Assembly: GCA_005893275.1 (NCBI GenBank)
Contig: VBOW01000032.1
Coordinates: forward strand, 10,088-74,087
From: Candidatus Eiseniibacteriota bacterium
Lineage (GTDB): Bacteria > Eisenbacteria > RBG-16-71-46 > SZUA-252
Length of the DNA stretch: 64,000 nt
Direction: 5' to 3'
Part shown: piece after piece, positions 13,557 through 62,980 of the stretch
How the letters are laid out: each line of letters starts with the position of its first letter
Numbering within the stretch: position 1 is the stretch's first letter
The notes under the pieces: generated by a model
What the model saw: only the letters and a program-made list of their open reading frames with translations
Told to the model about the DNA's origin: nothing
Databases searched by the model: none
Position numbers and translations under genes: made by a program

Positions 13557-13688
13557 CGGGTCCCCCGGGATCGAGGGTCGCTTTCGTCCAGCGTGCCACG
13601 ACGCGCCTTCAAACTTATCAGACCCTCCCGAGCCCTTGCAACCGGCTGGGGAATCTGCAAGGCTGAGGGCGTGTCCAGGGACCCCTCG

Positions 13689-15218: not shown

Positions 15219-15219
15219 C

Positions 15220-27997: not shown

Positions 27998-28324
27998 GTG
28001 CTCACGGCTCCCGAGGAGCGGGCGACGCCCGCCGAGATCAGGAAGAAAAGCGGCGAGTCGATCGCCATTCGGTGGACCGACGGACACGCGAGCACCTTCG
28101 GCGCCCGCTATCTGAGGGGCCGCTGCCCCTGCGCGCAATGCGTGAGCGAGACGTCGGGGGAGCGGCTGGTGTCGGAGGAGCACATCCGCCCCGATATCGC
28201 GATCGAGGCGGCGCGAACGGTCGGGAACTACGCGCTCCACTTTTCATTCAGCGACGGCCATACCACCGGCATCTACAGCTTCGACTACCTGAGACGGGTC
28301 TGCCCGTGCGAGGACTGCGCATGA
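27998..28324 (+). CDS. DUF971-like small Cys-rich protein (two CPCxxC motifs)
   Basis: GTG at 27998 (GAGGAG 5 nt upstream) begins VLTAPEERATP.... Contains CPCAQC and CPCEDC. The family call (gamma-butyrobetaine hydroxylase N-terminal-like) is from memory. Confidence 0.5.
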   Translation: MLTAPEERATPAEIRKKSGESIAIRWTDGHASTFGARYLRGRCPCAQCVSETSGERLVSEEHIRPDIAIEAARTVGNYALHFSFSDGHTTGIYSFDYLRRVCPCEDCA

Positions 28325-29304
28325 AGATCGAAACGACGCTGTCCGGGAGCTTCCCGAAGCTCCCGCTGGAACCCGGAGCGCCCAACGTCCGGGTCGTTCG
28401 GAACCGGATGGACCAGGGAAAGGCGACCGACCGCGACCTCGTCGAGGCGACCCGAGAGACCACGCGGCGCATCATCGCATTACAGGAATCCGCCGGCGTC
28501 GACATCCCGGTGGACGGCCAGGTGGCCTGGGACGACGAGCAGACGTACTTCGCGCGCGGGGTCCAGGGATTCGAGATCGCGGGCTTGATCCGCTACCTGG
28601 ATAGCAACACGTACTACCGCCAGCCCGAAATCGCCGGCCCGCTCTCCTGGACGCGGCCGGTCACGGTCGAGGATTTCCGGACGGCGCAGGGCATGGCGCA
28701 CCGGCCGCTCAAGGCCGTGCTGCCCGGCCCCTACTCGCTGTACCGGTTCTCCAAGGACCGCCACTACCGGAGCCCAGAGGAAGCGGCCCGCGCCATCGGA
28801 GAGGTCCTCGCCCGCGAGGCGAAGGCGCTCGAGGAGGCCGGGGCCGCGTGGATCCACTTCGAGGAGCCGTGGCTGGGGCGCGCCAGGGCCTCGGACGCAT
28901 CCCTCGTCCGGGCGGCGCTCGAGCCGCTGTTCCGCGGGCGAAAGGCGAAGACCGTGCTCCACGTTCCTTTCCGCGCCCCGGCGGCCGTGTTCGACGCGGT
29001 CCGGGATCTCACGTGGAGCGTGCTGGGGCTCGACCTGGTCGAGGCACCCGATGCGTGGAGTTTGATCTCCAAGGTGCCCGAAGGGCGCACCGTCGCGCTC
29101 GGGCTCATCGACGCGCGCAACACGAGGCTCGAAGACCCCTCCGACGTCGCCAAGGCGGTCGGCCGGGCGCGTGCGATGAGGTCCGATCTCGCGTGGCAGC
29201 TCTGCCCGACCGCGAGCCTCGAATACCTGCCCGTCGATCGCGCCGCGATGAAAGTCTCGCGCCTCACCGAGGCGGCACGCCTCGCTTCAGGGAACGGAGG
29301 ATGA
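28321..29304 (+). CDS. MetE-like protein lacking the zinc ligands (resembles the MetE N-terminal, non-catalytic half)
   Basis: MKIETTLSGSFPK...VDIPVDGQVAWDDEQTYF matches the MetE N-domain pattern (dLLPvGDFaWyDhvl). HVP replaces the HxC zinc motif. ATG overlaps the upstream stop (ATGA). Confidence 0.7.
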   Translation: MKIETTLSGSFPKLPLEPGAPNVRVVRNRMDQGKATDRDLVEATRETTRRIIALQESAGVDIPVDGQVAWDDEQTYFARGVQGFEIAGLIRYLDSNTYYRQPEIAGPLSWTRPVTVEDFRTAQGMAHRPLKAVLPGPYSLYRFSKDRHYRSPEEAARAIGEVLAREAKALEEAGAAWIHFEEPWLGRARASDASLVRAALEPLFRGRKAKTVLHVPFRAPAAVFDAVRDLTWSVLGLDLVEAPDAWSLISKVPEGRTVALGLIDARNTRLEDPSDVAKAVGRARAMRSDLAWQLCPTASLEYLPVDRAAMKVSRLTEAARLASGNGG

Positions 29305-30284
29305 TCATGCCGCGTGGACTCTGGACGACGACCGTCGGGAGCTTTCCGAAGCCGCCGCACCTCGAGCGCGCGCGGAACCAGTTCGCCCGCGGCGAAATCT
29401 CCGCCGAGCGACTGAACGAGCTCGAGCGGGAAGCCACGATCGAGGTGATCCGCTCCCAGGAGGAAATCGGGCTCGATATTCTGGTCGATGGAGAGCTCTA
29501 TCGCGGCGACATGACCACCTTCTTCGCGGAGCGGATGGACGGGTTTCAGATCTCGAACCCGGTCCGCTCCTACGGAAACCGCTATTACCGAAAGCCCGTC
29601 GCCACGGGCCCGGTGCGGCGCACCGACCCCTGGACGGTGGATTGGTGGAAATTCGCCCAGAGCCAGACGTCGAAGCCGGTGAAGGGGATGCTGACGGGCC
29701 CGTACACGATGATGGACTGGTCCTTCAACGAGCACTATCCGTCGCGCGAGGCGCTGGCCATGGATCTGGCCGAGGCGATTCGCGAAGAGGCGATCGCGCT
29801 CGTGGAGGCGGGAGCGAAGTTCGTCCAGGTGGACGAGCCGGCGATCTCGGTGCGCCCGGAGGAGCTCAAGCTCGCGGTCCGGGCCCTTGGCCGCGCCGTG
29901 GAGGGCGTGAAGGCGAAGACCATCACGCATATCTGCTATGGCGATTTCGACGTGATCTACCCCGCGCTCCTCGATCTCCCGGTCGACATGATCGATCTCG
30001 AGATGGCGAACAGCCGCTACGACCTCCTGGACCGGTTCCGGCAGCATCGTTTCACGAAGGAGATCGGGTACGGCGTGCTCGACGTGCACTCGCATCGGAT
30101 CGAGACCAAGGAGGAGGTGAAACAGGGAATCCTCCGCGGCCTCGAGATATTGAAGCCGGAGCAAATGTACATCGATCCCGACTGCGGCCTGAAAACGCGC
30201 ACCGTGGAGGAAGCGAAGGAAAAGCTCGCCGTGATGGTGGCGGCCGTGCGCGAGGTGCGGAAGGAGCGTGGCATCACGGCGTGA
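29301..30284 (+). CDS. core cobalamin-independent methionine synthase (MetE C-terminal catalytic-domain homolog) with intact Zn ligands
   Basis: TTVGSFPKPPHLERARNQFARGEIS, ITHICYGDF (HxC) and DPDCGLKTR match MetE catalytic-domain motifs. ATG overlaps the upstream stop (ATGA). Confidence 0.8.
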   Translation: MIMPRGLWTTTVGSFPKPPHLERARNQFARGEISAERLNELEREATIEVIRSQEEIGLDILVDGELYRGDMTTFFAERMDGFQISNPVRSYGNRYYRKPVATGPVRRTDPWTVDWWKFAQSQTSKPVKGMLTGPYTMMDWSFNEHYPSREALAMDLAEAIREEAIALVEAGAKFVQVDEPAISVRPEELKLAVRALGRAVEGVKAKTITHICYGDFDVIYPALLDLPVDMIDLEMANSRYDLLDRFRQHRFTKEIGYGVLDVHSHRIETKEEVKQGILRGLEILKPEQMYIDPDCGLKTRTVEEAKEKLAVMVAAVREVRKERGITA

Positions 30285-35520: not shown

Positions 35521-36795
35521 ATGCTCGATCTCAAGCGCATCCGCACCGAGACCGATCGCGTGCGGGAGGCCATCGCATTCAAAAAAACCCAGGCGGACCT
35601 GGACCGGTACCTGCTCCTCGACGAACAAAGGCGCGAGCTCCTTGCCGAAGCCGAGCGGCTGAAGCACGAGCGGAACGCCGTCTCGGAGGAAATCGGCCGT
35701 CTCAAGCGCGCGGGGAAAGACGCCCCCGACAAGGTCGCGGCGATGAAACGGGTCGGGGAGGAGATCAAGACGCTCGATGCGCGAATCGCCGGCCTGGAAT
35801 CGGAGCTCGAGAAGATCCTCGTATGGATCCCCAATGTCCCGCACCCTTCGGTCCCGCGAGCCGGGGACGCCGCGGGGAATGTCGTCGTGCGCGAGTCAGG
35901 CACGTTCCGCAAGCTCGGATTCAAGCCCAAGCAGCATTGGGAGCTCGCCGAGTCGCTCGGGCTCCTCGACTTCGACCGCGCCGGGAAGATCGCGGGCGCG
36001 GGGTTTCTGCTTTTCACCGGACGCGGCGCCCGTCTCGAGCGCGCGCTCATCCAATTCATGATCGATTCGGCGACCCGGCGGGGCTATACGGAGGTGTGGG
36101 CGCCGCATCTCGTCAGGCGGGAATGCCTCTTCGGGACCGGGCAGCTCCCCAAGCTCGAGGAGGACATGTACCGGGTGCAGGGCGAGGATCTGTTCCTCAA
36201 TCCCACGGCCGAAGTGCCGATCACCAACATCTACCGCGAGGAGACCCTGGACGGGGGAAGGCTCCCCATCAATCACGTCGGCTACTGCGCGAGCTATCGT
36301 AGGGAAGCGGGCGCCTACGGCCGCGAGACGCGCGGGATGATCCGCGTCCATCAGTTCGACAAGGTGGAGCTGGTCAAGCTCGTGCGCCCCGAGACATCCT
36401 ACGACGAGCATGAAAAGCTGCTCGCCGACGCGGAGGCGGTGCTCGACGCGCTCGAGCTGCCGCACCGGGTCGTGCTCCTGGCGGCGGGGGACTTGAGCTT
36501 CGCCGGAGCCAAGTGCTACGACCTCGAAACGTGGGCGCCCGGGGAGGACCGGTGGCTCGAGGTCTCCTCCTGCAGCAATTTTGAGGATTTCCAGGCCCGC
36601 CGCGCGGGAATTCGTTTCCGCCCCGGGCCCGGGGCGAAGGCAGAGTACGTCCACACCCTGAACGCCTCGGGATTGGCGCTCCCGCGCACGTTCGCGACGC
36701 TCCTCGAGTACCACCAGACCGAACGCGGATCCGTGCGCCTCCCGGACGCGCTCCTGCCCTACTGGGACGGCGAACGGGAGATCGGGCCCGTCTGA
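35521..36795 (+). CDS. serS: serine--tRNA ligase
   Basis: N-terminal coiled-coil and class II aaRS motifs (FRREAGAYGRETRGMIRVHQF, GAKCYDLETW). Confidence 0.9.
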   Translation: MLDLKRIRTETDRVREAIAFKKTQADLDRYLLLDEQRRELLAEAERLKHERNAVSEEIGRLKRAGKDAPDKVAAMKRVGEEIKTLDARIAGLESELEKILVWIPNVPHPSVPRAGDAAGNVVVRESGTFRKLGFKPKQHWELAESLGLLDFDRAGKIAGAGFLLFTGRGARLERALIQFMIDSATRRGYTEVWAPHLVRRECLFGTGQLPKLEEDMYRVQGEDLFLNPTAEVPITNIYREETLDGGRLPINHVGYCASYRREAGAYGRETRGMIRVHQFDKVELVKLVRPETSYDEHEKLLADAEAVLDALELPHRVVLLAAGDLSFAGAKCYDLETWAPGEDRWLEVSSCSNFEDFQARRAGIRFRPGPGAKAEYVHTLNASGLALPRTFATLLEYHQTERGSVRLPDALLPYWDGEREIGPV

Positions 36796-36805: not shown

Positions 36806-38098
36806 ATGCCCGATCTCCGCACCGCCCGGCCGCGGACGGTCCGGCCGCTGCCGTACAAGGTGTTTCTCTTCCTCGCGATCGTTGCCCTCATGGCGGCGCT
36901 CGTGCTTCACTCGAACTATCTGATCAGCCGGCTCAACAACGAAACCCAGAACCTCTGCTACGTCCTCGCCCGGTTTTTCGCGGTCTCCACGTTTCCGGTC
37001 GCCGAGGACCCGTCGTTGATCCCGATCTTCCGCGAGGTCGTGGGGAACATCAATTTTCCGATCATCCTCACGGACACCGGAGGCATCCCACGCGCGTGGA
37101 AGCACATCGGCATCCCTCCGGCGGCCGTTCCCGATTCGGTTCTCCAGCGCGCGGCCGAGACGGGCATCATTCCGCCCGCCGTGAAGAGGATCCAGGACGC
37201 CGCCGCGAAGCTCGATCGTAGGCACGCGCCCATCCCGGTCGAGCGGCTTGGAAATCCGGGCGTGCTCGGAATGGTCCACTACGGCGAGCCCTCGCTGGTC
37301 GCCAAGCTTCGATGGATCCCCTACGTCGAGTTCGGCGTGGTTTTCGCGCTGCTTGTCTTTGGATTTGTCGGCTTTCGCGCCATCGTGGCCGCGGAGCAGC
37401 GATCGCTCTGGGCCGCGCTCGCCAAGGAAACCGCGCACCAGCTCGGAACGCCCCTGTCCTCGCTCCTCGGCTGGTCCGCTCACCTGCGCGAGATGGCCGC
37501 GGGCGCGGATCGGACCCCGGAGCGGATCGAGGCGATCGCATCCGAGATCGATCTCGATCTGGATCGGCTCAACAAGGTCGCTTTCCGGTTCAGCCAGGTC
37601 GGCTCCGTTCCCGCGCTCAAGGAGGGGGATCTAACGCAGGTCGTGGCAGGGGTGGTGGGCTATTTTCGCCACCGCCTCCCGCACCTGGGACATGAGGTGG
37701 AGATCGCGGAGCGCTACGAGGCGATTCCCAGGGTCGCTTTCCACAAAGAGCTGATCGAATGGGTGGTCGAGAACCTGATTCGAAACGCGATCGACGCCGC
37801 CGACAAGCCCAGAGGAACGATCGAGGTGGAATTGGGCTGGCGGCGGGAACGGCGCGAAGTGGAGCTCAGGGTCAAGGACAACGGGCGCGGCATGACGCCC
37901 GCGGAGCGGCGACGCGCGTTTTCGCCGGGGTTCAGCACGAAGCGGCGAGGGTGGGGGCTGGGTCTCGCGCTTGCGAGGCGCGTCGTTCGCGAGTATCATC
38001 GCGGAAAGATCTCGATCGTGGAATCCGTGCCCGGCCAGGGAACGACCGTGGCCGTCGCGCTGCCCGTAGCCCCTTCCCCGAACCCCGGTTCCGCGTAA
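36806..38098 (+). CDS. sensor histidine kinase (membrane-anchored, HisKA + HATPase_c)
   Basis: N-terminal TM helix, H-box ETAHQLGTPLSSL, N/G boxes (NLIRNAIDA, DNGRGM, GWGLGL). Confidence 0.85.
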   Translation: MPDLRTARPRTVRPLPYKVFLFLAIVALMAALVLHSNYLISRLNNETQNLCYVLARFFAVSTFPVAEDPSLIPIFREVVGNINFPIILTDTGGIPRAWKHIGIPPAAVPDSVLQRAAETGIIPPAVKRIQDAAAKLDRRHAPIPVERLGNPGVLGMVHYGEPSLVAKLRWIPYVEFGVVFALLVFGFVGFRAIVAAEQRSLWAALAKETAHQLGTPLSSLLGWSAHLREMAAGADRTPERIEAIASEIDLDLDRLNKVAFRFSQVGSVPALKEGDLTQVVAGVVGYFRHRLPHLGHEVEIAERYEAIPRVAFHKELIEWVVENLIRNAIDAADKPRGTIEVELGWRRERREVELRVKDNGRGMTPAERRRAFSPGFSTKRRGWGLGLALARRVVREYHRGKISIVESVPGQGTTVAVALPVAPSPNPGSA

Positions 38099-38117
38099 TC
38101 CCAGAGCCGAAAGACCC

Positions 38118-39680
38118 ATGGCGTTCCAGAATCGAAAAATTCTTTGGGCCGATGACGAGATCGACCTCCTGAAGCCCCACATCCTGCTCCTGGAATCGAA
38201 GGGCTACCAGGTCACCTCCGTCTCCAATGGAAATGACGCCGTCGCGTGTGCCGCGCGCGAGAAGTTCGACGTCGTCCTGCTCGACGAATCGATGCCCGGG
38301 CTCGGCGGGCTTGCCACGCTCGAAGCGATCAAGGACCAGGACCCATCCGTCCCGGTCGTGCTGGTGACGAAGAACGAAGCGGAATCGCTCATGGACGAGG
38401 CGATCGGGAAGCGCATCGACGACTATCTGATCAAGCCGGTGCGCCCGACGCAGATTTTCCTCGCGCTGAAGCGTCTCCTCGAAGCGGACCGGCTCCAAGA
38501 GAGCCAGCGGGCGCGCGATTACGTGGCGGAGCTGTCGCGGCTCCGCGCGGACTCCACGGGGGGTCTCGACTGGCGCGGTTGGGTCGATCTCTACGCCCGG
38601 AGCGCCCAATGGGACGTGGAGCTCGATCAGGTCGAAGACGCCGGGCTCAAGCAGGCGCACGCGGACCAGAGACGAGAGCTCAACGTCGAGTTCGGCCAGT
38701 ACGTCGAGGCGCGGTATCCCTCGTGGCTTGCCGGAAACGATGCGCCCCCGCTCTCCACGGACGTCCTGGAGCGCTGGGTCGCGCCGATCCTGCGCGAAAA
38801 ACGGCGCGTCTATTTCATCGTCGTCGATTGTATGCGCCTCGACCAATGGCTCACGGTGGACCCCTTGGTCCGGGAATTTTTCGACGTGCAGGTCGACTAC
38901 CACGTCTCCATCCTGCCGACCGCGACTCCGTATTCGCGGAACGCGATTTTCGCGGGGCTCCTTCCCGACGCGATCCAGCGGAGGCACCCCGAGTTCTGGA
39001 ACGAGGGTCCGGGGGACGAGCGGAGCAAGAACCGCTACGAGCGCCAGCTCCTGGACGCGCACCTGAAGCGGCTGTCGCTCGAGCTCCTTTCGCCCCCGAA
39101 GTACATCAAGATCTACAACGTCGAAGAGGCGAACAACGTCAGGCGCAACGTCGTCACGTTCCAGAATATTCCGCTCGTAGCGCTGGTGTTCAATTTCCTC
39201 GATATGCTCACCCACGGGCGCTCCGAATCGGACCTCCTGCGCGAGCTCGCGCCCGACGAGTCCGCGTTCCGGTCGGTGATGCGTTCCTGGTTCCTTCACT
39301 CCTCGCTCTTCGAGGCGCTGAAATGGATGTCGAAGCAGGATTGCACGGTGATCTTGACGACCGATCACGGGGCGATCCTGAGCCGGCGCTCCGCCCTCGT
39401 CTACGGAAACAGGGAGACGTCGACCAATCTTCGATTCAAATTCGGAACGAATCTGGCCTGCGATCCCAAGCATGCCGTTCACGTGAAGGAGCCGAGCCGG
39501 TACCGGCTGCCGGCGGACACGGCGAACAAGAGCTATATCATCGCGAAGGAAGATTTCTATTTCGTCTACCCGACGAATTTCCACGAATACGAGAACAAGT
39601 ACCGCGGGAGCTTCCAGCACGGCGGCATTTCCCTGGAAGAGATGATCCTGCCCACGGTCACACTCACTCCTCGGGGCTGA
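38118..39680 (+). CDS. response regulator with CheY-like receiver domain fused to a PglZ (alkaline-phosphatase-like) effector domain; PorX-like
   Basis: Receiver domain (ILWADDEIDLL...VVLLDESMPGLGG...K). The rest has the PglZ metal-binding pattern (VVDCMRLD, TTDHG, HGG). This receiver+PglZ architecture matches PorX of the T9SS PorXY two-component system. Confidence 0.75.
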   Translation: MAFQNRKILWADDEIDLLKPHILLLESKGYQVTSVSNGNDAVACAAREKFDVVLLDESMPGLGGLATLEAIKDQDPSVPVVLVTKNEAESLMDEAIGKRIDDYLIKPVRPTQIFLALKRLLEADRLQESQRARDYVAELSRLRADSTGGLDWRGWVDLYARSAQWDVELDQVEDAGLKQAHADQRRELNVEFGQYVEARYPSWLAGNDAPPLSTDVLERWVAPILREKRRVYFIVVDCMRLDQWLTVDPLVREFFDVQVDYHVSILPTATPYSRNAIFAGLLPDAIQRRHPEFWNEGPGDERSKNRYERQLLDAHLKRLSLELLSPPKYIKIYNVEEANNVRRNVVTFQNIPLVALVFNFLDMLTHGRSESDLLRELAPDESAFRSVMRSWFLHSSLFEALKWMSKQDCTVILTTDHGAILSRRSALVYGNRETSTNLRFKFGTNLACDPKHAVHVKEPSRYRLPADTANKSYIIAKEDFYFVYPTNFHEYENKYRGSFQHGGISLEEMILPTVTLTPRG

Positions 39681-39686: not shown

Positions 39687-40190
39687 TTGAACATCGAGGT
39701 GCGCTCGCTCCTGCGCGGAGCGGGGGATACGCGTTCCTTCGGCAGGCGCCTCGGCGCCCTGGCACTTCCAGGCGACTGGGTCGCCCTCACGGGCGATCTG
39801 GGCACCGGCAAGACGACCCTGGTCTCCGGGATTGTCGACGCCGTTCATCCGGGGATGCGGGCACGGAGCCCCACCTACGTGCGCGTGGAGGTTTACGGCG
39901 AAGCTCCCGCGATCGTCCACGTGGACCTTTACCGCTTGCAGGCCCCGGGGGAGTGGGACACGCTCGGAATCGAGGATCTGGCGGAACGGGGAGCAATCGT
40001 GCTCGTGGAATGGGCCGACCGCGCGCCGGACCGGCTCCCGGAGGGCCGGCTGGACCTGTCGCTTCGCTACTCCGGCGAGGCCGCCCGTGAGATTCGGATC
40101 CAGGCGCGTGGGGAACGCTGGCTCACCCTTCTCAAGGAAGGGAAGCTCGACCGGGAATATTGGAGCGATGCGCTATATCCTCGGGATTGA
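39687..40190 (+). CDS. tsaE: tRNA threonylcarbamoyladenosine biosynthesis protein TsaE
   Basis: Walker A GDLGTGKTTL, YjeE family size. TTG start. Confidence 0.8.
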   Translation: MNIEVRSLLRGAGDTRSFGRRLGALALPGDWVALTGDLGTGKTTLVSGIVDAVHPGMRARSPTYVRVEVYGEAPAIVHVDLYRLQAPGEWDTLGIEDLAERGAIVLVEWADRAPDRLPEGRLDLSLRYSGEAAREIRIQARGERWLTLLKEGKLDREYWSDALYPRD

Positions 40191-40884
40191 TACCGCGAAT
40201 CGCTTCGGCTCCGTGGCGCTCGCCGAGGACGGCTCGGCGTCCGTGTGGGAGGGCCTCGCTCCGGGGGAGCATTCGAGCGGGCTTTCGCGCGCGGCGGAGA
40301 GGCTTCTTCGAGAACGAGGTCGGACGCTTCGCGATCTCTCGGGAATCGCCGTCTCGGGCGGTCCGGGATCGTTCACCGGGCTTCGAATCGGGCTCGCGTG
40401 GGCCAAGGGCGTTTGCTTCGGGCTCCCGGTCAAGTTGACGCTCGTCTCGGCGCACGAGGCGAACGCGTACCGGCACCGGCGCGCGCAAGGCTTGATCGCG
40501 ACCGTGCTCCCGGGGGAGCGGGGCCAGGTCCAGGCTTCGCTTTGGTCGGCGGGCGCGGCCTGCCTCTGGGGGCCCGAGCGCGTTTCCGAGGAGGACCTCG
40601 CAGAGGTCCTCCTCGAGGCCGCGGGCCCGGGGAACACCGCAATCGCGGTCGCGGCACCGGACCTGAAACCGGAGCTTCGCGAGCTGCTCGAGGAAGCGGG
40701 CTACGTCCTCCTGGACCGCGGTTCTAATGATGAGAGGGGAAGCGGCGCCGATTCCCCCCCGCCTGCCGCGGCCGCCGTGGCCGAGCTGGGCGATCGGAAC
40801 CTGCTCGCGGGGCAGAACGAGGATCTTGCGGGAGCCGTGCCCTTCTACGGGCGCACGCCCAACGCGAGGAAGCCTTCGTCATGA
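40168..40884 (+). CDS. tsaB: tRNA threonylcarbamoyladenosine biosynthesis protein TsaB (inactive Kae1 homolog)
   Basis: MRYILGIDTANRFGSVAL...GPGSFTGLRIG. Overlaps tsaE by 23 nt. Confidence 0.8.
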   Translation: MRYILGIDTANRFGSVALAEDGSASVWEGLAPGEHSSGLSRAAERLLRERGRTLRDLSGIAVSGGPGSFTGLRIGLAWAKGVCFGLPVKLTLVSAHEANAYRHRRAQGLIATVLPGERGQVQASLWSAGAACLWGPERVSEEDLAEVLLEAAGPGNTAIAVAAPDLKPELRELLEEAGYVLLDRGSNDERGSGADSPPPAAAAVAELGDRNLLAGQNEDLAGAVPFYGRTPNARKPSS

Positions 40885-41354
40885 CGGATCAGGATTCGGT
40901 CCGGATCGTGCCGCTCACGGCCGAGCATCTGGACCAGATCGTCGCGATCGAGCGCACCTCGTTCAGCGACCCCTGGACGCGCGGCATGTTCGAATCGGAG
41001 CTGGACGCAGCCGCGCGGGGCTACGCTCGAGGGGCGATGCGGGGCGAAGATCTCATCGGGTACCTGCTTGCCGTTCTCATTCCGGATGAAGCCCACATCG
41101 GTAATCTGGCCGTGCATCCGGCCCGCCGGCGGCAGGGCATCGCCCAAAGGCTCCTGGATGAGCTCGTGCGCGACGCGGCGCGGGCGGGTGTTCGGAGGGT
41201 GACCCTCGAGGTCAGGCAATCGAATCAGATGGCGCGTAAGTTCTATTATAAGAACGAGTTCATCGATATCGCGATTCGAAAGAACTACTACCGGAGCCCG
41301 GTGGAGGATGCTATCGTGATGTATCGCGTCCTCCCGGAGGATCCGAGCGTATGA
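40881..41354 (+). CDS. rimI: ribosomal-protein-alanine N-acetyltransferase (GNAT)
   Basis: GNAT motif A RRRQGIAQRLL. Position after tsaB is the classic tsaB-rimI arrangement. ATGA overlap. Confidence 0.8.
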   Translation: MTDQDSVRIVPLTAEHLDQIVAIERTSFSDPWTRGMFESELDAAARGYARGAMRGEDLIGYLLAVLIPDEAHIGNLAVHPARRRQGIAQRLLDELVRDAARAGVRRVTLEVRQSNQMARKFYYKNEFIDIAIRKNYYRSPVEDAIVMYRVLPEDPSV

Positions 41355-42478: not shown

Positions 42479-43785
42479 AGGCGCCCGCGAGCGCCACACT
42501 CACCCGGCGCCTTGACGCCATGTATCGCTTCGAGCGCAGCGGAATGCGCCCGGGGCTCGTGGGGATCGAGCGCCTGCTCGAGGCGGCGGGCAGGCCGGAC
42601 CGCGCGTTCGCGTCGATCCTCGTGGCCGGGACGAACGGCAAGGGCTCCACGGCGGCCCACCTCGATTCCATCCTCCGCGCCGCCGGGCTTCGAACGGGCC
42701 TTTACACCTCGCCCCACCTCCTCCGATTCCACGAGCGGATCCGCGTCCAGGGTCGAGAGATCGGGGACGAGACGCTCGAGACCCTGCTCGAGCGCTGGTG
42801 GCCCCGGTTCGAAGCCCAGGGTCCCTCCTTCTTCGAGGCGGCGACCGCGCTCTGCTTCGACCATTTCGCGGCCTCGAATCTGGACATCGCGGTCGTGGAG
42901 GTTGGCCTCGGTGGCCGGCTGGACGCCACGAACATCTTGAGCCCGCGCGTCTCGGTGATCACCACGATCAGCAGCGATCACCGCGAGATCCTGGGCGACA
43001 CCTTGAAGCGGATCGCGGCCGAGAAGGCGGGAATCATCAAGCCCGGCGCCACCCTCGTGTGCGGCGTCCGGGGACGGGAGGCCAAAGCGGTGATCGCCGC
43101 CGCCGCATCGCAGAAGGGGGCGAACGTGAGCTGGCTCGGAAGCGCGGCCCGCTACACCACGCGCGGCTTGAGCCTCGATGGAACCGAGTTCCAGCTCGAA
43201 ACATCCTCGTACTCAGGGAGGCTTCGCACGAATCTCTTGGGAAAGCATCAGGCGAGAAACGCGGCGCTCGCGGCGCTCGCGGCCGAAAAAGTGCTCGAAA
43301 GCCGCCCGCCGGCGGAGATCGCGTCGGCGATCGCGCGCGGCATTCCTCGCGCGCGATGGCCCGCCCGGGCCGAGCTGGTTCGCGAAGAGCCCCCCGTGTT
43401 GGTCGACGTCGCCCACAACGCCGAGGGCGCCCGCGCGCTGGCGGAGACGGTCGGCGCGCTCTTCTCCGAGCGGCGCGTCGCCTTCGTGGTCGCGCTGTCT
43501 CAGGACAAGGCCCACGCCGAGTTCTTGAGGCGGCTGGGCTCGGTGGCGAGCCGCTTCTACCTGACCCAGTTCGAAGGCGAGCGCGCCACGCCCGCCTCCG
43601 CGCTTCTTCGCGCCGCCCCCTCGCGCCATTTGACCTGCGAGGCGATCCCCTCGATTCCAGACGCGCTCGACCGCGCGGTGGCATGGGCCGCGGAGGCCGG
43701 CGGCGTGGTCGTCGTCGCGGGCTCCTTCTTTCTCCTGGCCTCGGCGCTGCCGCATCTCGAGGTCCGCGTACCCGATGCGATTTGA
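42475..43785 (+). CDS. folC: bifunctional folylpolyglutamate synthase / dihydrofolate synthase
   Basis: Mur-ligase P-loop VAGTNGKGST and the FolC C-terminal domain. Conserved accD-folC adjacency. Confidence 0.85.
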   Translation: MKAPASATLTRRLDAMYRFERSGMRPGLVGIERLLEAAGRPDRAFASILVAGTNGKGSTAAHLDSILRAAGLRTGLYTSPHLLRFHERIRVQGREIGDETLETLLERWWPRFEAQGPSFFEAATALCFDHFAASNLDIAVVEVGLGGRLDATNILSPRVSVITTISSDHREILGDTLKRIAAEKAGIIKPGATLVCGVRGREAKAVIAAAASQKGANVSWLGSAARYTTRGLSLDGTEFQLETSSYSGRLRTNLLGKHQARNAALAALAAEKVLESRPPAEIASAIARGIPRARWPARAELVREEPPVLVDVAHNAEGARALAETVGALFSERRVAFVVALSQDKAHAEFLRRLGSVASRFYLTQFEGERATPASALLRAAPSRHLTCEAIPSIPDALDRAVAWAAEAGGVVVVAGSFFLLASALPHLEVRVPDAI

Positions 43786-46700
43786 AGGCCGGCCCGCCGG
43801 CCCGATCCGCGCCCTGCTCGTGGCGCTCGCCATGGCGGCCTCAGGACCGGGAAGCGGACGAGCCCAGAGCCCCGCGCCGGCCCCCGCGGCCGATGAGACC
43901 TATCACCTGAAGGCGGACCGGCTCTCGGGCTCCGCGACGTCGAACGAGGACGTCTACACGGCGATCCACGTCACGGTGGAGCACGGCACCACCACGGTCA
44001 CGGGCGACTCGGCCCGCGTCTTCCGCCAGCGGGAGCTCGTCGTCCTGATGGGCGATGTGAAGATCATCGACGGCAAGACCAGGATGTGGGGGGACGAAGC
44101 ATCCTACGATCGGAGGGCGCGTCTCGCCGTCCTCCGAGGCAACGTCCGTATCCAGGAAGGCACCGCGCGCATCACGGGGCGGGAGGCCCGCTTCTACCGC
44201 AACGAAAACCGGTCGGTGATCGTGGGGAGCCCTCGAATGGAGGATTCCACGAGGATCTTGACCGCCGACCAGATCGAATACGACCGGGCGAAGGACGTGA
44301 TCCTCGCCTCGGGAAACGTGGTGGGCGTCGATCGCGCGGAGAGCACGACGGTGCACGCCGGGCGGGTCCGATACGACCGGCGGGGCGACTATGCGTGGGC
44401 GACCCAGAGCCCGGTCCTCACGATCGAGGAATCGGGAGGGAAGTCGACCCAGGTGCGCGGGCTCTCCATGGAATTCGACAACGCAAAACGCGCGGTCTTC
44501 ACGGTCGGCGATGTCCAGGTGGAGCGCGACCAGCTTCGAGCCAAAGGGGATCGCGGGGAGTTCTACCAGTCGGAGAACCGCGCCCTTCTGGTTGGGAATC
44601 CGCGCGCGTGGGACGAGGAGGGAGAGGTTCAGGGAGACACGCTCGAGATCCGAATGGCGCAGCGTCGCGTCGAGTCTGTCCAGGTGCGCCCCCACGCCGC
44701 CGTGAGCTACGAAGCGAAGGGCGAGCGCGGGCGGGGGGAGCGCAGCCACGCGGCCGGCGACACCGTGACGCTCTTTCTTCCGGACCAGGAATCGCGCAGG
44801 GCGGTCATCGTCGGGCACGCGCAGAGCTCCTACTGGCCGGCGAGCGAGGACAGCGCCCAAGGCGGGCGCAACATCTCGAGCGGGGACAGCATCATCGTGG
44901 AATTCGCTCACGGACGGGCCCACCGGGCGACGGTGGTGGGTCGGAGCGAGGGGACCTATTTCATGGCGGCGGAAGGGGACACGAGCCGCGCGCAGCAGGA
45001 GGAGCGGGTTCGATACCGCGGCGAACGGGTCATCTACGACGTGGACCGGAACGAGGTGAACGTGGTCGGCTCGGCGGACGTGACGTACAAGGAGCTGCGC
45101 CTGAACGCGGAGCGCGTCTCGTTCAACACGAAGACCGAGCGGATGCGCGCCGAAGGCGATCCGGTGCTCTACGACGGCAGGGATCGGATCACGGGCCAGA
45201 CCATGACCTACGACCTGTCGATTCGCCGAGGCACGATTTACGCGGGCAAGACGGCGTATGAGAAGGGCTTCTATTACGGGGAGCAGATCCGGAAGGTCTC
45301 CGACGACGTCCTCGACGTGAAGAACGGGAGCTACACCACGTGCGATCTGGACTCGCCCCACTATCACTTCGGAAGCAGCAAGATGAAGATCCTTCTCCAC
45401 GACAAGGTGATCGCACGGCCCGTCGTGTTCTACATCAAGCACATTCCGGTGCTCGCGCTCCCTTTCTACATCTTTCCCATCAAGCCGGGGCGCCATTCCG
45501 GCTTTCAGCTCCCGCAAGTAGAGTTCGGCTCCTCGAGCGCGGGGGGGAAGTTCATACGCAACCTCGGATACTACTGGGCGGTGAACGACTACCTGGACGC
45601 GACCGGATGGGGGGACTACTACCAGGAGACGCGGTGGATCGCCCACGCGCAGACGCGGTACAACAAGCGATACCGGTGGTCGGGCGAGATCAACTCCTCG
45701 TTCGAGCACACGCTCGTATCGGGCGCCGATCGGTGGGATCTCTTCGGGCGGCACTTCCAGACCCTGGGCCCCAATTTCACGCTCACCGCGCAGGGTAACT
45801 TCGCGAACTCGAGCAATTACCTCCGCGACCAGACCATCGGCCGCTCCGTTCTGCTCCGGGTGCAGCGCAATCTCAGATCGAGCCTCTCCCTGAACAAGAG
45901 CTGGAGCGGGGCCTCGCTCAACTTCGGGCTCCTTCGGAACCAGGACCTCGATCCGGAACGGGGCGGCCCCCCCGAGATCGAGCAGCGGCTGCCCGCGGTC
46001 TCGTTTTCGCTGTCCGCACGGCCGCTGGGGCATCTCGCGCGGGGCAAGGAGCCCGCGCGCCTTCCGTGGCTTTCCTCCACGGTCTTCAGCTTGAGCTCGA
46101 CCCTTCTGAGCGAGCGGAATCGATTCTTCGAGGCTCGGGCGGAGTCGACGGTCGTGCTCGACACCCTGGGGACGCCGGTCGATACAACGGTTCGATTCGT
46201 GGACGTCACGACCGCGCGCACCGCCGTGAGCCACAACATGGGGCTGACGGACGTGAGGACGCTGCTCGGGTTTCTCAAGGTGAGCCCGAACATGAGCTAC
46301 ACCGAGGTCTTCGTCAGCAGGGACGCCGCCGGGAACCGCAATCAGCGGGCGGGAGTCTGGCGCGGGGGGATCGACATGAATACAGCCTTCTTCGGGACGT
46401 TCCGGCCCTCGCTGGGACCGCTCCGGGGGATCCGCCACGTCGTCACCCCTTCGGTCGGTCTGGTGTATCAGCCCGCCTACCCGAAGCTCAATTACCGCGA
46501 CGCCAACGGGAACCTCAAGCCGCGCTTTACCGGCCTCTCCACCTCGCTGGGCGGCCTGGAATCGCGCGCGATGACGTTCTCGATTCGGAACGACATCCAC
46601 GTCAAATGGGGGAGCGCCGCACAGCCCAAGGTGATCAACAACCTGATCCAGCTCTCGACGTCCGGAAGTTACAACTTCCTCGCAGCGAGACAGGGACAAA

Positions 46701-47305
46701 AGCCGCTGTCCGATCTCTCGAGCGTTCTTACCCTTCGTCCGACCGACCGCGGACTGATCAGCATGGGTTTCACCCACAACCCGTACGACGGAAAGCTCCT
46801 CAGCTTCCGCGTCTCGAGCGGCCTTTTCTTCCAAGGGGTGAGGCGAGCCGAGCAGCGGGAGGAGGAGAGGGTGGACTTGGGACCCGGCGCCCAGGCGGTC
46901 GCCGCGCCGACCGGTTGGACGCCCGCGGGACTGCTCCCGGCCGGGCTCCCGTGGACGTTCGGAATTTCGATGAGCTACACCGGCTCGAGCAGCAGGCTCG
47001 CCGCCGGCGGGTACTCGCCGTGGCGCTCGAGCACCACCACGAATGCGTCCTTGGGGCTCAATCCCACGACCAACTGGCGGGTGGATTACTCGGCGCAGTT
47101 CGATTTCAAGAGCCGTCAAATGATTTCCCAGAACTACTCGGTCCGGCGCGAGCTGCACTGTTGGGAAGCGCAATTCACCCGCAGCATCTCCGGAGGAATC
47201 ACCGAGTACTACTTCAAGATCAACGTGAAGAATCTCCCGGAGGTCTATTACGAGCAAGGTTCGCGCGGGTTGCGCGGGTTCGGCGGAATCGAAAATGCTT
47301 TCTAG
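43775..47305 (+). CDS. lptD: LPS-assembly protein LptD-like giant outer-membrane protein (1176 aa) with several tandem OstA/LptA-like N-terminal modules
   Basis: Signal peptide (ALLVALAMAASGPGSG). Repeated OstA_N-like beta-jellyroll segments (GNVRIQEG...ARFYRNE...) over ~500 aa. The C-terminal ~600 aa has an LptD-like barrel (YFKINVKN... terminal aromatic F). Confidence 0.7.
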   Translation: MRFEGRPAGPIRALLVALAMAASGPGSGRAQSPAPAPAADETYHLKADRLSGSATSNEDVYTAIHVTVEHGTTTVTGDSARVFRQRELVVLMGDVKIIDGKTRMWGDEASYDRRARLAVLRGNVRIQEGTARITGREARFYRNENRSVIVGSPRMEDSTRILTADQIEYDRAKDVILASGNVVGVDRAESTTVHAGRVRYDRRGDYAWATQSPVLTIEESGGKSTQVRGLSMEFDNAKRAVFTVGDVQVERDQLRAKGDRGEFYQSENRALLVGNPRAWDEEGEVQGDTLEIRMAQRRVESVQVRPHAAVSYEAKGERGRGERSHAAGDTVTLFLPDQESRRAVIVGHAQSSYWPASEDSAQGGRNISSGDSIIVEFAHGRAHRATVVGRSEGTYFMAAEGDTSRAQQEERVRYRGERVIYDVDRNEVNVVGSADVTYKELRLNAERVSFNTKTERMRAEGDPVLYDGRDRITGQTMTYDLSIRRGTIYAGKTAYEKGFYYGEQIRKVSDDVLDVKNGSYTTCDLDSPHYHFGSSKMKILLHDKVIARPVVFYIKHIPVLALPFYIFPIKPGRHSGFQLPQVEFGSSSAGGKFIRNLGYYWAVNDYLDATGWGDYYQETRWIAHAQTRYNKRYRWSGEINSSFEHTLVSGADRWDLFGRHFQTLGPNFTLTAQGNFANSSNYLRDQTIGRSVLLRVQRNLRSSLSLNKSWSGASLNFGLLRNQDLDPERGGPPEIEQRLPAVSFSLSARPLGHLARGKEPARLPWLSSTVFSLSSTLLSERNRFFEARAESTVVLDTLGTPVDTTVRFVDVTTARTAVSHNMGLTDVRTLLGFLKVSPNMSYTEVFVSRDAAGNRNQRAGVWRGGIDMNTAFFGTFRPSLGPLRGIRHVVTPSVGLVYQPAYPKLNYRDANGNLKPRFTGLSTSLGGLESRAMTFSIRNDIHVKWGSAAQPKVINNLIQLSTSGSYNFLAARQGQKPLSDLSSVLTLRPTDRGLISMGFTHNPYDGKLLSFRVSSGLFFQGVRRAEQREEERVDLGPGAQAVAAPTGWTPAGLLPAGLPWTFGISMSYTGSSSRLAAGGYSPWRSSTTTNASLGLNPTTNWRVDYSAQFDFKSRQMISQNYSVRRELHCWEAQFTRSISGGITEYYFKINVKNLPEVYYEQGSRGLRGFGGIENAF

Positions 47306-47835: not shown

Positions 47836-49179
47836 CTGACCCGATTCCGATCCCTACTCTTTCTTCTTGTCGCAGCGGGGCTTGCGGCTTTGAGCCCGCG
47901 GCTTCTGGGAAAGGGTTCGCCCTGCGACATCCTCATTCAGACCACGACGGATGTGAACGGCGAGCTCGCTCCCTGCGGCTGACACGCTCACCCGCTAGGC
48001 GGGCTCGCCCGGAGGGCGAGCCAATTCAACGTAGGCGCCATGAAGTTCCCGAACCACTTCCGCGTGGACTCCGGGGATTTCTTCGGCACGGCCGGGGAAC
48101 AGGATTCCCTCAAGAGCGCCTTCATGGTTCACGCCATGGATCGGCTCGGGTACGACGTTGTCACGCTCGGGGAGCGTGAGTTCAACTTCGGCCAGGCGTT
48201 CCTTCTCGACACCTTCAAGAAAACGAAGATCGACGTCGTCTCGTCCAACCTGTTTTACGCCGACACGAAGAAGCCGTTCGTGAAGCCCTACGTCATTCGC
48301 AAGATGTGCTCCTTGCGGGTGGCGTTCTTCGGTCTCATCGGGAAGGACATGCGGATCCGCACGCTCGTGAGCGAGCGGGCGCTCGAGGTGAAAGATCCGT
48401 TCGCGACCGCAAAAGCCCTCGTCCCCGAGCTCCGGAAGAAGGCGGACATCGTGGTGCTGCTCTCCCACCTTGGGCTTACGGAGAGTCAACGTCTGACGCT
48501 GGAGGTGCCCGGGATCGACGTCATGGTGTTCGGGCATCAGCCCGGACTATTCCGCGAGATCGCGAAGACGAACGGCGTCATCAACACCCGCGCCGGCGAT
48601 CGCGGGCAATACATCCCCGGCGTGCACCTGGTCATCGAGGATGGCAAGATTTCCTCGTACGACGGCGAGGTCGTGGGGCTGGACGACAAGATCCCCGCGG
48701 ACGACGACATGAATCACCTCGTGGACGCCTTCAACGATGAATTGAACCGGCGCTTCTCCAACAACCCCAATGCCAACACGCCCGAGGTGCGGCCGGTCTC
48801 GGCCTCGGGGGATCATTATCTGGGAGAGAAGAACTGCCGCCGCTGCCACGAGGCCGAGTACCAGATGTACTCCAGCCAGGCCCACGCGCACGCCTTCGAG
48901 ACGCTGACGAAGAACCAGCGCGACTCGACCCCCGAATGCCTGCCCTGCCATGTCGTCGGGTACGGTCAGGCGGGCGGGTTCGCGTCCAAGCAGACCACCC
49001 CCGATCTCGTGAACGTGCAGTGCGAGAATTGCCACGGTATGGGCACCAAACATCCGGAGAAGGGTGACCCCACCGCAGTCGTGGGTCCTGACGTGTGTCT
49101 CACCTGCCACACACACGAGCAGAATCCGAATTTCGACTACGACGAGGCGCTCACGCATATTGTCCACTGGCATCCGTAG
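47836..49179 (+). CDS. exported fusion protein: signal peptide + catalytically degenerate 5'-nucleotidase/metallophosphatase-like domain + C-terminal tetrahaem cytochrome c; in-frame TGA at 47980..47982 (candidate selenocysteine) or a nonsense pseudogene
   Basis: The same frame as the listed ORF 48040..49179 is open upstream and reads LTRFRSLLFLLVAAGLAALSPRLLGKGSPCDILIQTTTDVNGELAPCG-TGA-HAHPLGGLARRASQFNVGAMKFPNHF.... This is a signal peptide followed by 5'-nucleotidase motif I. The downstream part has nucleotidase motifs in degenerate form (SGD, GEREF) and CRRCH, CLPCH, CENCH, CLTCH. The 48040 start alone would give a haem protein with no export signal. No ATG/GTG/TTG precedes the signal peptide; CTG at 47836 sits 6 nt after GGAGGTGA. 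Confidence 0.55.
48002..48022 (+). promoter_or_regulatory. candidate bSECIS-like stem-loop (9-bp stem ggctcgccc/gggcgagcc, GGA apical loop) 31 nt downstream of the in-frame UGA
   Basis: Read directly from the sequence. The geometry fits the general bacterial SECIS description (UGA-to-apical-loop distance in the 16-37 nt range, G in the first loop positions). Confidence 0.35.
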
Positions 49180-50134
49180 GGGAGGCAGGACCGCCCTAGC
49201 CGCCCTCGCATGTCTCCTCATGGCGAGCGGCTCCCCCCGGGCGCAAAGCGTCAAGCTTCGAGCGCTCACCATTCCATCCGACTGCCAGCCGGGCAGTTGG
49301 GTCTCCTACAGCATTCAGGTGGATTCCAAGAACCGGCCCCCGCGCCGGTTCACGCAGAGGCTTGCGGTCGTCGCTCGCGAGGGTTGGGGCGAGGAGTCGG
49401 GGGCGTGGGTGGAGCTCAAGACCGCGGAAGGCGGGAGGACGCGGATCGAACGCGGATTCTTCGCGCAGGGCGAAGCCTCGGATCGGGGGCGTCTCCCGAA
49501 CGCCCCGCTCGTGCTCCGGCGCTACCAGATGCTTACTCCGGACGGACGGCTCTTCGAATATCCGGTCGGCGGGGAAGGCGGGCCGATGCCGGATGAGGAC
49601 ATCTCGGCCATGGACCTTCTCGAATTCAAGGGAATCGCGAAGATCGATTCACTCGCGGCCGACACGCTCCGCGCCGACCGCACGGTCCTCCCCTGCAGCG
49701 TGGAACGAGTAACCCGATATGGAAAAGACGAATGGCCGGCCGAGGACACGACCTTCGTGAACCGCGCGGTCATGACGCGCACCTCGTGGAGGAATCCCTC
49801 GATCCCGGTCACCGGCTACGCGCGGACGATTCTCGAGGTATCAACCGAACGGGCTCCGGCGCGAGCCGTCGCGGATTCGGTCGCCGCGGGCTCGGCCGCG
49901 GGGGGCCCGGCCGCCGAGGAAGCCGCCGCGGGCCCGGCCGGCGCGGACTCGGCCCATTCAGCCCCCGCCGATTCGACGATGCCGATCCTCCGGCCCGCGA
50001 GCCGACGGTTCTTCTACCGAGCCGAGGTTACCCTGCTCCACCTGGGGAAGGACGCCATCCCGGAAATCACCCAGGCTCCGGAGCCCGCCCCGGAAGAAGG
50101 TTCGCCGCGAGCCAAGCCGGGCGCCAATCGCTAG
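49160..50134 (+). CDS. hypothetical secreted protein (Ala/Pro-rich C-terminus)
   Basis: TTG at 49160 gives (M)STGIRRGGRTALAALACLLMASGSPRAQS, a plausible Sec signal. It overlaps the cytochrome gene end by 20 nt. ATG 49220 is the alternative start but gives no signal. No recognisable domain. Confidence 0.45.
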   Translation: MSTGIRRGGRTALAALACLLMASGSPRAQSVKLRALTIPSDCQPGSWVSYSIQVDSKNRPPRRFTQRLAVVAREGWGEESGAWVELKTAEGGRTRIERGFFAQGEASDRGRLPNAPLVLRRYQMLTPDGRLFEYPVGGEGGPMPDEDISAMDLLEFKGIAKIDSLAADTLRADRTVLPCSVERVTRYGKDEWPAEDTTFVNRAVMTRTSWRNPSIPVTGYARTILEVSTERAPARAVADSVAAGSAAGGPAAEEAAAGPAGADSAHSAPADSTMPILRPASRRFFYRAEVTLLHLGKDAIPEITQAPEPAPEEGSPRAKPGANR

Positions 50135-50287
50135 ACGCCACGCGAGCCGGCCTGACGGCGTAGGAACCACCCGCTTCAGCCGCGCCCAAATTTCTCCAGA
50201 TACCCCGCTTCAAGGCCGATACCTGCGACGTGGCCGGCCGGTGTGCGGCCCCGGTCCGTAAACCCTTATTCAGGCGTGGGAGTATCT

Positions 50288-52009: not shown

Positions 52010-52012
52010 CCT

Positions 52013-53230: not shown

Positions 53231-53346
53231 CACGGCGGGCAGGCGGCTCAAGATCGGCAGCCGAATTGCCGATTGCAATTCCGGACCCAGATTAACCAAA
53301 GCCCCGATGGGTGGGGCGAGCGAGGCCAATCATGGAGGTTGTGCGT

Positions 53347-53727
53347 ATGCATCGGAACAGTTCTGAGGGCGGTTTCACCCTGATCGAGCTCGTGATCGTG
53401 ATCGTGATCCTCGGCATCCTCGCCGCGGTCGCGATTCCGAAGTACGAGGACATGCGTGAGCAGGCCCGCGTGGCCACGCTCAAGGGACAGCTCGGCTCGA
53501 TCCGCTCGGCGGTCGCGATCCAATACGCGCGCAACGCCTTGAACGGCTCGGCGGCGTTCCCCGTGTTGAACGGGACCATTTTCGCCGACGGCAATGTCCC
53601 GAAGGAGCCGGTCAACAACTCGAGCGCGGTCAAGACGACGCCGGGTGTCGATAACGCGGGCGGCTGGCAGTACAGCTCGACGACCGGAATCGTGAAGGCC
53701 AACCTGAACGCGTACTCGTCCTACTAA
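53347..53727 (+). CDS. pilA: type IV major pilin (prepilin with class III signal)
   Basis: Leader MHRNSSEG followed by G|FTLIELVIVIVILGILAAVAIP. GGAGG 8 nt upstream of ATG 53347. 126 aa with an AT-richer N-terminal codon region. Confidence 0.85.
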   Translation: MHRNSSEGGFTLIELVIVIVILGILAAVAIPKYEDMREQARVATLKGQLGSIRSAVAIQYARNALNGSAAFPVLNGTIFADGNVPKEPVNNSSAVKTTPGVDNAGGWQYSSTTGIVKANLNAYSSY

Positions 53728-53831
53728 AGCTTACCTTTCAGCGGCTTCAGGGTGGGGCTGAGGTGGGAGCGATGCGCTTCCACCTCTTGCGCCATTCTGG
53801 GGCAGATCCCGTCGTGGATCGGGGGACTCGC

Positions 53832-58759: not shown

Positions 58760-58770
58760 GGGAGGAGATC

Positions 58771-60561: not shown

Positions 60562-60570
60562 CGGGAGACC

Positions 60571-61140: not shown

Positions 61141-61149
61141 GGGGGAGCG

Positions 61150-62966: not shown

Positions 62967-62980
62967 GGAGGGAAAAGGTC

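Follow-up and report, generated by a model that had tools for sequence, protein, structure and literature searches.

A predicted PorX orthologue beside a histidine kinase gene and tsaE in a Candidatus Eisenbacteria relative: genomic context and comparison with the PorX/PorY system

PorX of Porphyromonas gingivalis has been studied as a master switch for type IX secretion (system: T9SS) and as a drug target. Three questions about this response regulator are addressed here, namely the kinase input that activates it, the purpose of its phosphodiesterase domain, and its new link to the UbK/TsaE family. PorX homologues are reported in all T9SS-encoding species (PMC10951265). In P. gingivalis the porX and porY genes are orphans (PMC4800418, PMC10951265), and PorY, a protein of ~37 kDa, is described as a kinase of the inner membrane in which two membrane segments are combined with phospho-acceptor and ATPase domains (PMC4800418). 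The gene downstream of porX in 81 P. gingivalis strains is ubK1, which encodes the sole UbK/YdiB/YjeE/TsaE-family protein of this species, and the porX-ubK1 synteny led Saran et al. (J Biol Chem 2026, PMC13241743) to discover that, in vitro, UbK1 phosphorylates residue Y79 of PorX. In the literature library searched, only one further paper names PorX together with UbK. According to the study of Saran et al., Y79 lacks broad conservation and gingipains are secreted without it, mutation of the phosphosite has no effect on T9SS export, and PorX may have roles beyond T9SS. The present analysis concerns two neighbouring genes, for a membrane histidine kinase and a PorX-type response regulator, in a 64,000-nucleotide stretch of contig VBOW01000032.1 (assembly GCA_005893275.1, positions 10,088 to 74,087, forward strand) from a soil bacterium of Candidatus Eiseniibacteriota. 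This whole stretch is called the window, and all positions refer to it. A previous interpretation made from the letters alone, here called the sequence-only reading, had placed a PorY/PorX-like pair at this locus. We estimate a probability of roughly 0.6 that the kinase and the PorX orthologue form a co-transcribed two-component system of this Candidatus Eisenbacteria bacterium, working by the PorX-type mechanism proposed below.

Both open reading frames (ORFs) lie where the sequence-only reading had put them, at 36806-38098 (+, 430 aa) and 38118-39680 (+, 520 aa), and exactly the same two genes were called independently on this contig in four metagenome assemblies at ENA. Coding-type codon-position GC within 36806-39680 is confined to these two ORFs (0.83-0.84 at the third codon position, GC3, and 0.39-0.46 at the second, GC2), and the G+C content of the window is 63-70% along its whole length. 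The features of the pair are the following.

36806..38098, + strand: sensor histidine kinase, 430 aa (Pfam, PDB matches, hydropathy, family alignment, ENA gene call)
36929..37318, + strand: extracytoplasmic sensor domain of the kinase, ~130 aa (residues ~42-171), between the first and second transmembrane segments
37436..37438, + strand: codon of H211, predicted phospho-acceptor histidine of the kinase (kinase alignments)
38118..39680, + strand: porX orthologue, 520 aa (NCBIfam NF052313, PDB 7PV7/8TED), with the kinase gene 19 nt upstream
38283..38285, + strand: codon of D56, receiver phospho-acceptor, P. gingivalis D58 (residue mapping)
38925..38927, + strand: codon of T270, PglZ nucleophile, P. 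gingivalis T272 (residue mapping)

Judged from its sequence, the regulator is a PorX orthologue, because it scores far above the cutoff of the curated PorX model, matches PorX structures over its full length and keeps all PorX active-site residues. The fusion of a receiver to a PglZ domain, which the sequence-only reading had recognised, is borne out by Pfam matches above the gathering cutoffs (Response_reg, E=5.5e-23, residues 8-117; PglZ, E=3.9e-16, residues 229-424), so that the C-terminal half does score as PglZ. NF052313, the equivalog model T9SS_RR_PorX, gives 651.3 bits at a cutoff of 300, and this match runs from residue 7 to 519 of the regulator and from position 2 to 513 of the 513 positions of the model. 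Full-length, ungapped-like alignments were obtained with the crystal structures of PorX from P. gingivalis (7PV7, E=8e-134) and Flavobacterium johnsoniae (8TED, E=1.2e-131), and the global identity to P. gingivalis PorX is 42%. The protein is predicted to share the PorX fold, with a receiver (residues ~7-120), a three-helix bundle (~121-210), and a PglZ domain with its cap, the predicted phosphodiesterase domain of the alkaline-phosphatase superfamily (~229-519).

Functional residues of PorX were taken from Schmitz et al. 2022 (PMC9757075) and then mapped onto the regulator. The receiver pocket is present (D12, D13, D56, T84 and K106, for P. gingivalis D14, D15, D58, T86 and K108), and with D56 it has the phospho-acceptor aspartate whose lack would have spoken against the earlier proposal. 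The metal-binding positions, which that proposal had singled out for comparison with PorX, are all kept; besides the nucleophile T270 they comprise the zinc ligands D237, D362, H366, D416, H417 and H501 (P. gingivalis D239, D361, H365, D415, H416 and H500). The contacts to the substrate pGpG, R274 and N359, and the dimer-interface serines S386 and S390 are present as well. The PorX family as a whole is compact, with 374 clusters at 50% identity reaching E<=1e-30 among 1.84 billion representatives, and the regulator is an additional member of this known curated family in a little-studied phylum.

For comparison, 80 loci from species-representative genomes were fetched by means of a PorX alignment, and 74 of them were informative for gene context. 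Grouped by record label, they fall into Eisenbacteria, Latescibacteria, Poribacteria, KSB1, Zixibacteria, Calditrichota, Ignavibacteriota/Chlorobiota, Cloacimonadota, Marinimicrobia, Fibrobacteraceae, Gemmatimonadetes, Rhodothermales/Balneolales and Bacteroidota. Across these 13 named groups all orthologues (80/80) share the receiver residues and the catalytic, metal and substrate-contact residues of PglZ, the one exception being N359 (79/80); the scoring covered the receiver, catalytic, metal-binding and substrate-contact positions and set the dimer-interface residues aside. The nearest named homologues of both proteins come from metagenome-assembled genomes (MAGs) of Candidatus Eisenbacteria (Candidatus Eiseniibacteriota at NCBI) and Latescibacteria, and the top species-representative match is the Eisenbacteria MAG DASXTQ01 (survey locus L007), whose PorX is 90% identical and which has the same gene order.

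The gene directly upstream encodes a membrane histidine kinase, as the sequence-only reading had it, with two hydrophobic transmembrane segments by hydropathy (residues ~17-41 and ~172-198) and intact H, N, G1 and G2 boxes. Pfam recognises HATPase_c (E=8.6e-23, 81 bits) and gives a sub-threshold HisKA match, and residues ~200-425 align with the PDB structures of ZraS, KinB, CpxA and EnvZ. H211 lies in the nearly invariant H-box AKETAHQLGTPLSSLLGW of the dimerisation and histidine phosphotransfer (DHp) domain, and this histidine is invariant within the motif KE.AHQLGTP..L.GW in kinase alignments of 19 and 9 sequences. The catalytic and ATP-binding (CA) domain is complete, with its N box (E322-N327), G1 (D358xGxG) and G2 (G382xGxG). 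No cytoplasmic PAS or HAMP domain was recognised in the kinase. The sensor region has no Pfam match, and among the NCBIfam matches listed for the full kinase nothing is sensor-specific. In a confident AlphaFold2 model of this domain (pLDDT 87.9, pTM 0.81), a long helix at the N-terminus leads into a small alpha/beta core; Foldseek found no match for it in the PDB at E<=0.001, and the best superposition is with the extracytoplasmic domain of WalK (7DUD, TM score 0.51), followed by DctB and PAS-type sensors. On the strength of this model, the domain may be called PAS/PDC-like at most. It carries positions conserved across phyla in the family alignment and is a place in which to seek a ligand.

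In 18 of the 74 informative loci, which carry the labels of at least six phyla, the gene next to porX on its upstream side has the same orientation and encodes a kinase of this family. The adjacent kinase is present in Latescibacterota (3/3), Zixibacteria (3/3), Poribacteria (2/2), Fibrobacteraceae (1/1), Gemmatimonadetes (1/1) and Eisenbacteria (3/7), and absent in Bacteroidota (0/20), Rhodothermales/Balneolales (0/5), Cloacimonadota (0/4), Marinimicrobia (0/2) and Calditrichota (0/3). The spacing between the two genes ranges from an 8-nt overlap to ~200 nt, and start and stop codons often overlap. In several phyla the kinase alignment reaches query residues 17-422 and so takes in the sensor domain, but a longer, unrelated N-terminus is found in Poribacteria, Gemmatimonadetes and some Latescibacterota. 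Three more loci of the Eisenbacteria type have an M28 peptidase gene, a short ORF without a family match or a Cache-MCP gene between kinase and porX, and one of the Eisenbacteria type (L014) has a kinase fragment ~5.5 kb upstream of porX. The adjacency of kinase and porX looks like the ancestral arrangement of the Fibrobacteres-Chlorobi-Bacteroidetes (FCB) group, from which the orphan porX and porY of Bacteroidota would be derived through loss of the kinase from this position. In lineages where the two genes adjoin, the kinase is a natural candidate for the ancestral cognate sensor.

Some observations on the survey stand by themselves. In some Eisenbacteria an M28 peptidase gene on the opposite strand, or a gene for a Cache-HAMP methyl-accepting chemotaxis protein, comes between kinase and porX (L008:4223-5926(-), L014:3399-5144(-), L040:3666-5876(+)). 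The two loci of Poribacteria, a group outside the FCB, have kinase and porX with overlapping stop and start codons and no tsaE downstream (L017 and L020, coordinates 4410-7545). The kinases of two loci labelled 'Ignavibacteriales' (L042, L045) are 60-69% identical to Zixibacteria proteins, and these labels are doubtful. Near-identical PorX or kinase proteins also occur under labels such as Hyphomicrobiales, Limnocylindria, Methylomirabilota and Dormibacteraeota (P0067, P0118, P0137, P0170; L009, L069); contigs with such conflicting labels are probably mis-binned or mislabelled.

A mechanism can be proposed on the model of the work on P. gingivalis and F. johnsoniae (PMC9757075, PMC10951265, PMC11320123), and we regard this canonical phosphorelay as probable. 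An envelope or periplasmic cue would be sensed by the membrane kinase through its small PAS/PDC-like extracytoplasmic domain, whereupon the kinase would autophosphorylate at H211 and the phosphate would pass to D56 of the regulator. Phosphorylation would lead to dimerisation, as in the PorX proteins of P. gingivalis and F. johnsoniae. The dimer would organise the two-zinc PglZ site, in which T270 is the putative nucleophile together with D237, D362, H366, D416, H417 and H501, and this site would hydrolyse linear and cyclic oligonucleotides, while the dimerised regulator would also engage protein partners. For the output, envelope or T9SS control of this same kind is the likeliest. The transfer of phosphate from kinase to PorX is suggested by their conserved adjacency in the 18 loci, start/stop overlaps included; zinc-dependent phosphodiesterase activity and phosphorylation-induced dimerisation are predicted from residue conservation.

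The pair stands within a run of genes on the same strand, of which the immediate neighbours are these.

35521..36795, + strand: serS, ending 10 nt 5' of the kinase start (Pfam)
39699..40190, + strand: tsaE, UbK/YjeE/YdiB family (TIGR00150, Pfam TsaE, motifs)
40168..40884, + strand: tsaB, overlapping its neighbours (gene calls, Pfam)
40881..41354, + strand: rimI, overlapping its neighbour and followed by accD, folC and an LptD-like gene (gene calls, Pfam)

From hemC (34600) through serS, the kinase gene, porX, tsaE, tsaB, rimI, accD and folC to the LptD-like gene (end 47305) all genes are on the + strand, with intergenic spacing between a 23-nt overlap and 19 nt. The start of tsaE lies 18 nt past the porX stop, a distance that shrinks to 6 nt with the alternative TTG start at 39687. 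Promoter-like and terminator-like sites in 31-50.5 kb show no excess over shuffled sequence. Scans of the window found no tRNA, Rfam family, mobile-element-like structure or meaningful repeat structure, and explanations by a mobile element or an RNA element were rejected on these grounds, the promoter and terminator scans being at shuffle level. By tblastn the full or near-full block serS-kinase-porX-tsaE-tsaB-rimI-accD-folC, occasionally with one hit missing, recurs at L007, L011, L013, L016, L042, L043, L045, L048, L049 and L067, under labels that include Eisenbacteria, Latescibacteria, Zixibacteria and Fibrobacteraceae. An ancestral FCB arrangement would be the simplest reading of this block.

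The most conserved feature of the locus is the pairing of porX with tsaE. The TsaE protein of the window passes TIGR00150 (87.4 bits, cutoff 60.1) and shows general TsaE features, with the motifs Walker A GDLGTGKT, SPT, HVDLYR and EW. Directly downstream of porX on the same strand, tsaE is found in 61 of the 74 informative loci (82%) and in 12 of the 13 named groups, at a median gap of ~46 bp; Poribacteria, with two loci, is the only group in which it is missing from all informative loci. Ten downstream ORFs sampled from ten lineages all pass TIGR00150 (82-124 bits). TsaE and TsaB are subunits of one complex, and the adjacency of their genes is kept in 35 of 59 loci (59%), below that of porX and tsaE. 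Upstream of porX at least four unrelated families occur (kinase, SprA, HD-domain and ComEA-like), while tsaE is constant downstream. The sequence-only reading had the flanking genes right, serS on one side and tsaE, tsaB and rimI on the other; its view of them as a neutral housekeeping context does not hold for tsaE, given its retention next to porX. TsaE is probably part of the functional unit, either as a second, UbK-type phosphorylation input to PorX or as a co-regulated partner.

Genomic context also supports the link between PorX and T9SS outside Porphyromonas. In ten loci porX is immediately preceded, on the same strand, by sprA, the gene of the T9SS translocon, which gives the order sprA-porX-tsaE (L023, L028, L029, L030, L032, L034, L036, L038, L041 and L054, coordinates ~1-5950). 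Their labels are Ignavibacteria, Melioribacter, Chlorobi-type and deep 'Bacteroidota', and the identity of SprA is given by PDB 6H3I (E=2e-117), Pfam SprA_N and tblastn. Poribacteria were reported in 2014 to have cargo with the T9SS C-terminal domain (CTD) and no structural T9SS genes (PMC3909097).

Several results weigh against the favoured explanation, whose main weakness is the T9SS output. Neither the window nor the ~90 kb of parent contigs examined, a span that is uninformative for the T9SS content of the whole genome, yielded a T9SS core gene or CTD-bearing cargo; the checks used NCBIfam on unannotated and envelope proteins of the window, precomputed Pfam over the ~90 kb, and tblastn of an SprA fragment on the window. 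A search of the literature library gave no mention of T9SS in Eisenbacteria. The phosphodiesterase activity of PorX is reported to be dispensable for gingipain secretion (PMC11320123), so that the enzymatic and the T9SS output of PorX may be separate. The label 'PorY-like' stands for the architecture of the kinase and for its kept adjacency to porX in other phyla; as to orthology with PorY, homologue searches with the kinase returned same-lineage or Zixibacteria kinases with generic names. The Y79 column, which is S77 here, includes S19, N12, D10, H10, G9, E7 and Y1 among the 80 orthologues. The taxon labels, finally, are those of MAG records, and some are clearly wrong.

Other explanations concern the identity of the regulator, its target and its partner. 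A PglZ domain might mark a component of bacteriophage exclusion (BREX) phage defence, and the Pfam PglZ match and weak matches to BREX PglZ models fit this; these models reach at best 83 bits in NCBIfam, where the cutoff is 250, and <=60 bits in PADLOC, compared with 651 for PorX, and the protein carries a receiver and is as long as a PorX. The sequence-only reading had noted no other BREX genes nearby, and indeed neither BrxC, PglX, BrxL or another BREX partner nor defence genes were found in ~90 kb around the locus. Model scores and gene context thus refute a BREX or defence identity, to which we assign practically no chance. Control of the type IV pilus or type II secretion system (T2SS)-like cluster ~10 kb downstream, raised in the sequence-only reading, is a further option. 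The cluster does exist and starts at ~50.2 kb; it occupies 50243-63379 and comprises an MshEN/T2SSE ATPase, T2SSF, four N_methyl pseudopilins, a TPR protein, an NHL-repeat protein, a PilM-like protein and a secretin, and it ends with a stand-alone receiver protein of 132 aa (62981-63379). It shares the strand and the 30-kb neighbourhood of the pair, and PorX-type regulators act on envelope machines. Yet accD, folC, the LptD-like gene and HU, cytochrome and hypothetical genes intervene, and the cluster has a receiver of its own. Elsewhere the porX neighbours within 6 kb on either side are the kinase, SprA, HD-domain, ComEA-like, TsaE, TsaB, RimI, AccD and FolC proteins; no pilus gene is among the identified neighbours in other loci, where no search aimed at pilus genes was made. 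Regulation by the pair of this cluster, which is more than 10 kb away, is therefore highly improbable.

Two further alternatives involve tsaE. The porX-tsaE adjacency and the serS...folC block may be inherited gene order with no functional coupling, the pair acting independently of TsaE, which is compatible with the phosphorelay favoured here. Similarity among the PorX proteins runs broadly along the labelled groups, since for 51 of 69 sequences the nearest named neighbour comes from the same group, as fits a block that descended vertically; a separate function of TsaE is established, in the synthesis of N6-threonylcarbamoyladenosine (t6A; TIGR00150), and the UbK1 phosphosite is unconserved in the alignment of the 80 orthologues. 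Against this, rearrangement has repeatedly changed what lies upstream of porX while tsaE stays downstream, the retention of porX-tsaE exceeds that of tsaE-tsaB although the latter encode one complex, the gaps are compatible with co-transcription, and phosphorylation of PorX by UbK1 in vitro has been reported (PMC13241743). We consider uncoupled inheritance possible and somewhat doubtful. A different proposal is that the PorX orthologue here, and perhaps ancestrally, has no part in T9SS control and acts with TsaE in a nucleotide- or translation-linked pathway. Turnover of oligonucleotide signals or nanoRNAs by its phosphodiesterase would then be matched to the activity of the t6A/TsaE ATPase or kinase, and T9SS control would be a later addition in Bacteroidota. 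This would agree with the place of porX in the block with overlaps or tiny gaps, with a porX-tsaE linkage better kept than tsaE-tsaB, with the lack of T9SS genes near the locus (~90 kb), with the absence of an export effect in the phosphosite mutant, and with the roles beyond T9SS that the authors of that study propose for PorX (PMC13241743). It would agree as well with a PglZ nucleophile and metal ligands that show no variation (80/80 orthologues), even though the T9SS output of P. gingivalis reportedly does not require catalysis. On the other side stand the ten sprA-porX-tsaE loci, the co-occurrence of PorX with T9SS genes stated in the literature (PMC10951265), and the distribution of the recovered orthologues, which are by record label almost only of the FCB group, where T9SS is reported or suggested, plus Poribacteria. 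All in all this proposal seems unlikely. To our knowledge there is no biochemical link between PglZ activity and TsaE. A broader scenario, which we put forward tentatively and hold to be less than an even prospect by a wide measure, makes PorX-TsaE an ancient module of the whole FCB group with the adjacent kinase as the ancestral PorY; the invariant PglZ site would be coupled to TsaE, as UbK kinase or t6A ATPase, and independent of T9SS, and the T9SS control known from P. gingivalis would be one lineage-specific output.

A conserved UbK phosphosite was rejected as an explanation for the pairing, since the Y79 column is highly variable; Y79 cannot be the element conserved in it, and the porX-tsaE synteny is left unexplained by this site. 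The invariance of the PglZ nucleophile and metal ligands, despite the reported dispensability of catalysis for gingipain secretion, suggests a further conserved enzymatic role.

Other parts of the window hold some genes of separate interest. The LptD-like protein of 1176 aa (43775-47305; Pfam LptD_2) matches LptA in two stretches (70.9 bits) and LptC in its N-terminal part, and may be a fused bridge and translocon for lipopolysaccharide transport. Between the housekeeping operon and the pilus cluster (48040-50134) there are genes for a cytochrome c554-like protein of 379 aa and then a protein of 304 aa that has no Pfam, NCBIfam or PADLOC match. Tandem paralogues occur at 28072-30284, where two Meth_synt_2-type genes (cobalamin-independent methionine synthase-like) are preceded by a GBBH-like gene, and at 13593-16569, where there is a TldD/PmbA pair.

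What the locus adds to the knowledge of PorX is genomic context: an operon-encoded candidate cognate kinase, sprA-porX in Ignavibacteria-type genomes, and a deeply conserved porX-tsaE pair. That the catalytic site shows no variation among the 80 orthologues of the 13 named groups is an argument for the importance of the enzymatic activity, although gingipain secretion is reported not to depend on it. The pairing of porX with tsaE, earlier noted within one species only, is kept across about a dozen phyla, and the UbK-PorX hypothesis is therefore testable in other organisms.

Set beside PorX of P. gingivalis (PGN_1019; 7PV7/7PVA) and F. johnsoniae (Fjoh_2906; 8TED, 8P6F), the regulator has the same three-part architecture and length, with identical receiver pocket, two-zinc site, nucleophile, pGpG contacts and interface serines, whereas its host is a relative of Candidatus Eisenbacteria and not a member of Bacteroidota. 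It differs from the orphan porX of Bacteroidota in having a histidine kinase gene 19 nt upstream. With the BREX PglZ proteins it has in common a homologous PglZ fold and the same set of metal ligands; they lack the receiver domain that is present here, and BREX partners do not accompany this regulator. The kinase resembles P. gingivalis PorY (PGN_2001) in its two-segment inner-membrane architecture and is paired genomically with a PorX orthologue, but porY is distant from porX in P. gingivalis and the two genes are adjacent here; its sensor domain belongs to no named family and is replaced in some phyla by longer N-termini. As for the UbK1/TsaE-PorX relationship, the UbK1 target Y79 of P. gingivalis PorX is S77 in the regulator, and a tsaE/ubK gene lies immediately 3' of porX in both organisms; the published synteny covers 81 strains of one species, and the present survey finds it in 61 of 74 species-level loci from 12 of 13 groups.

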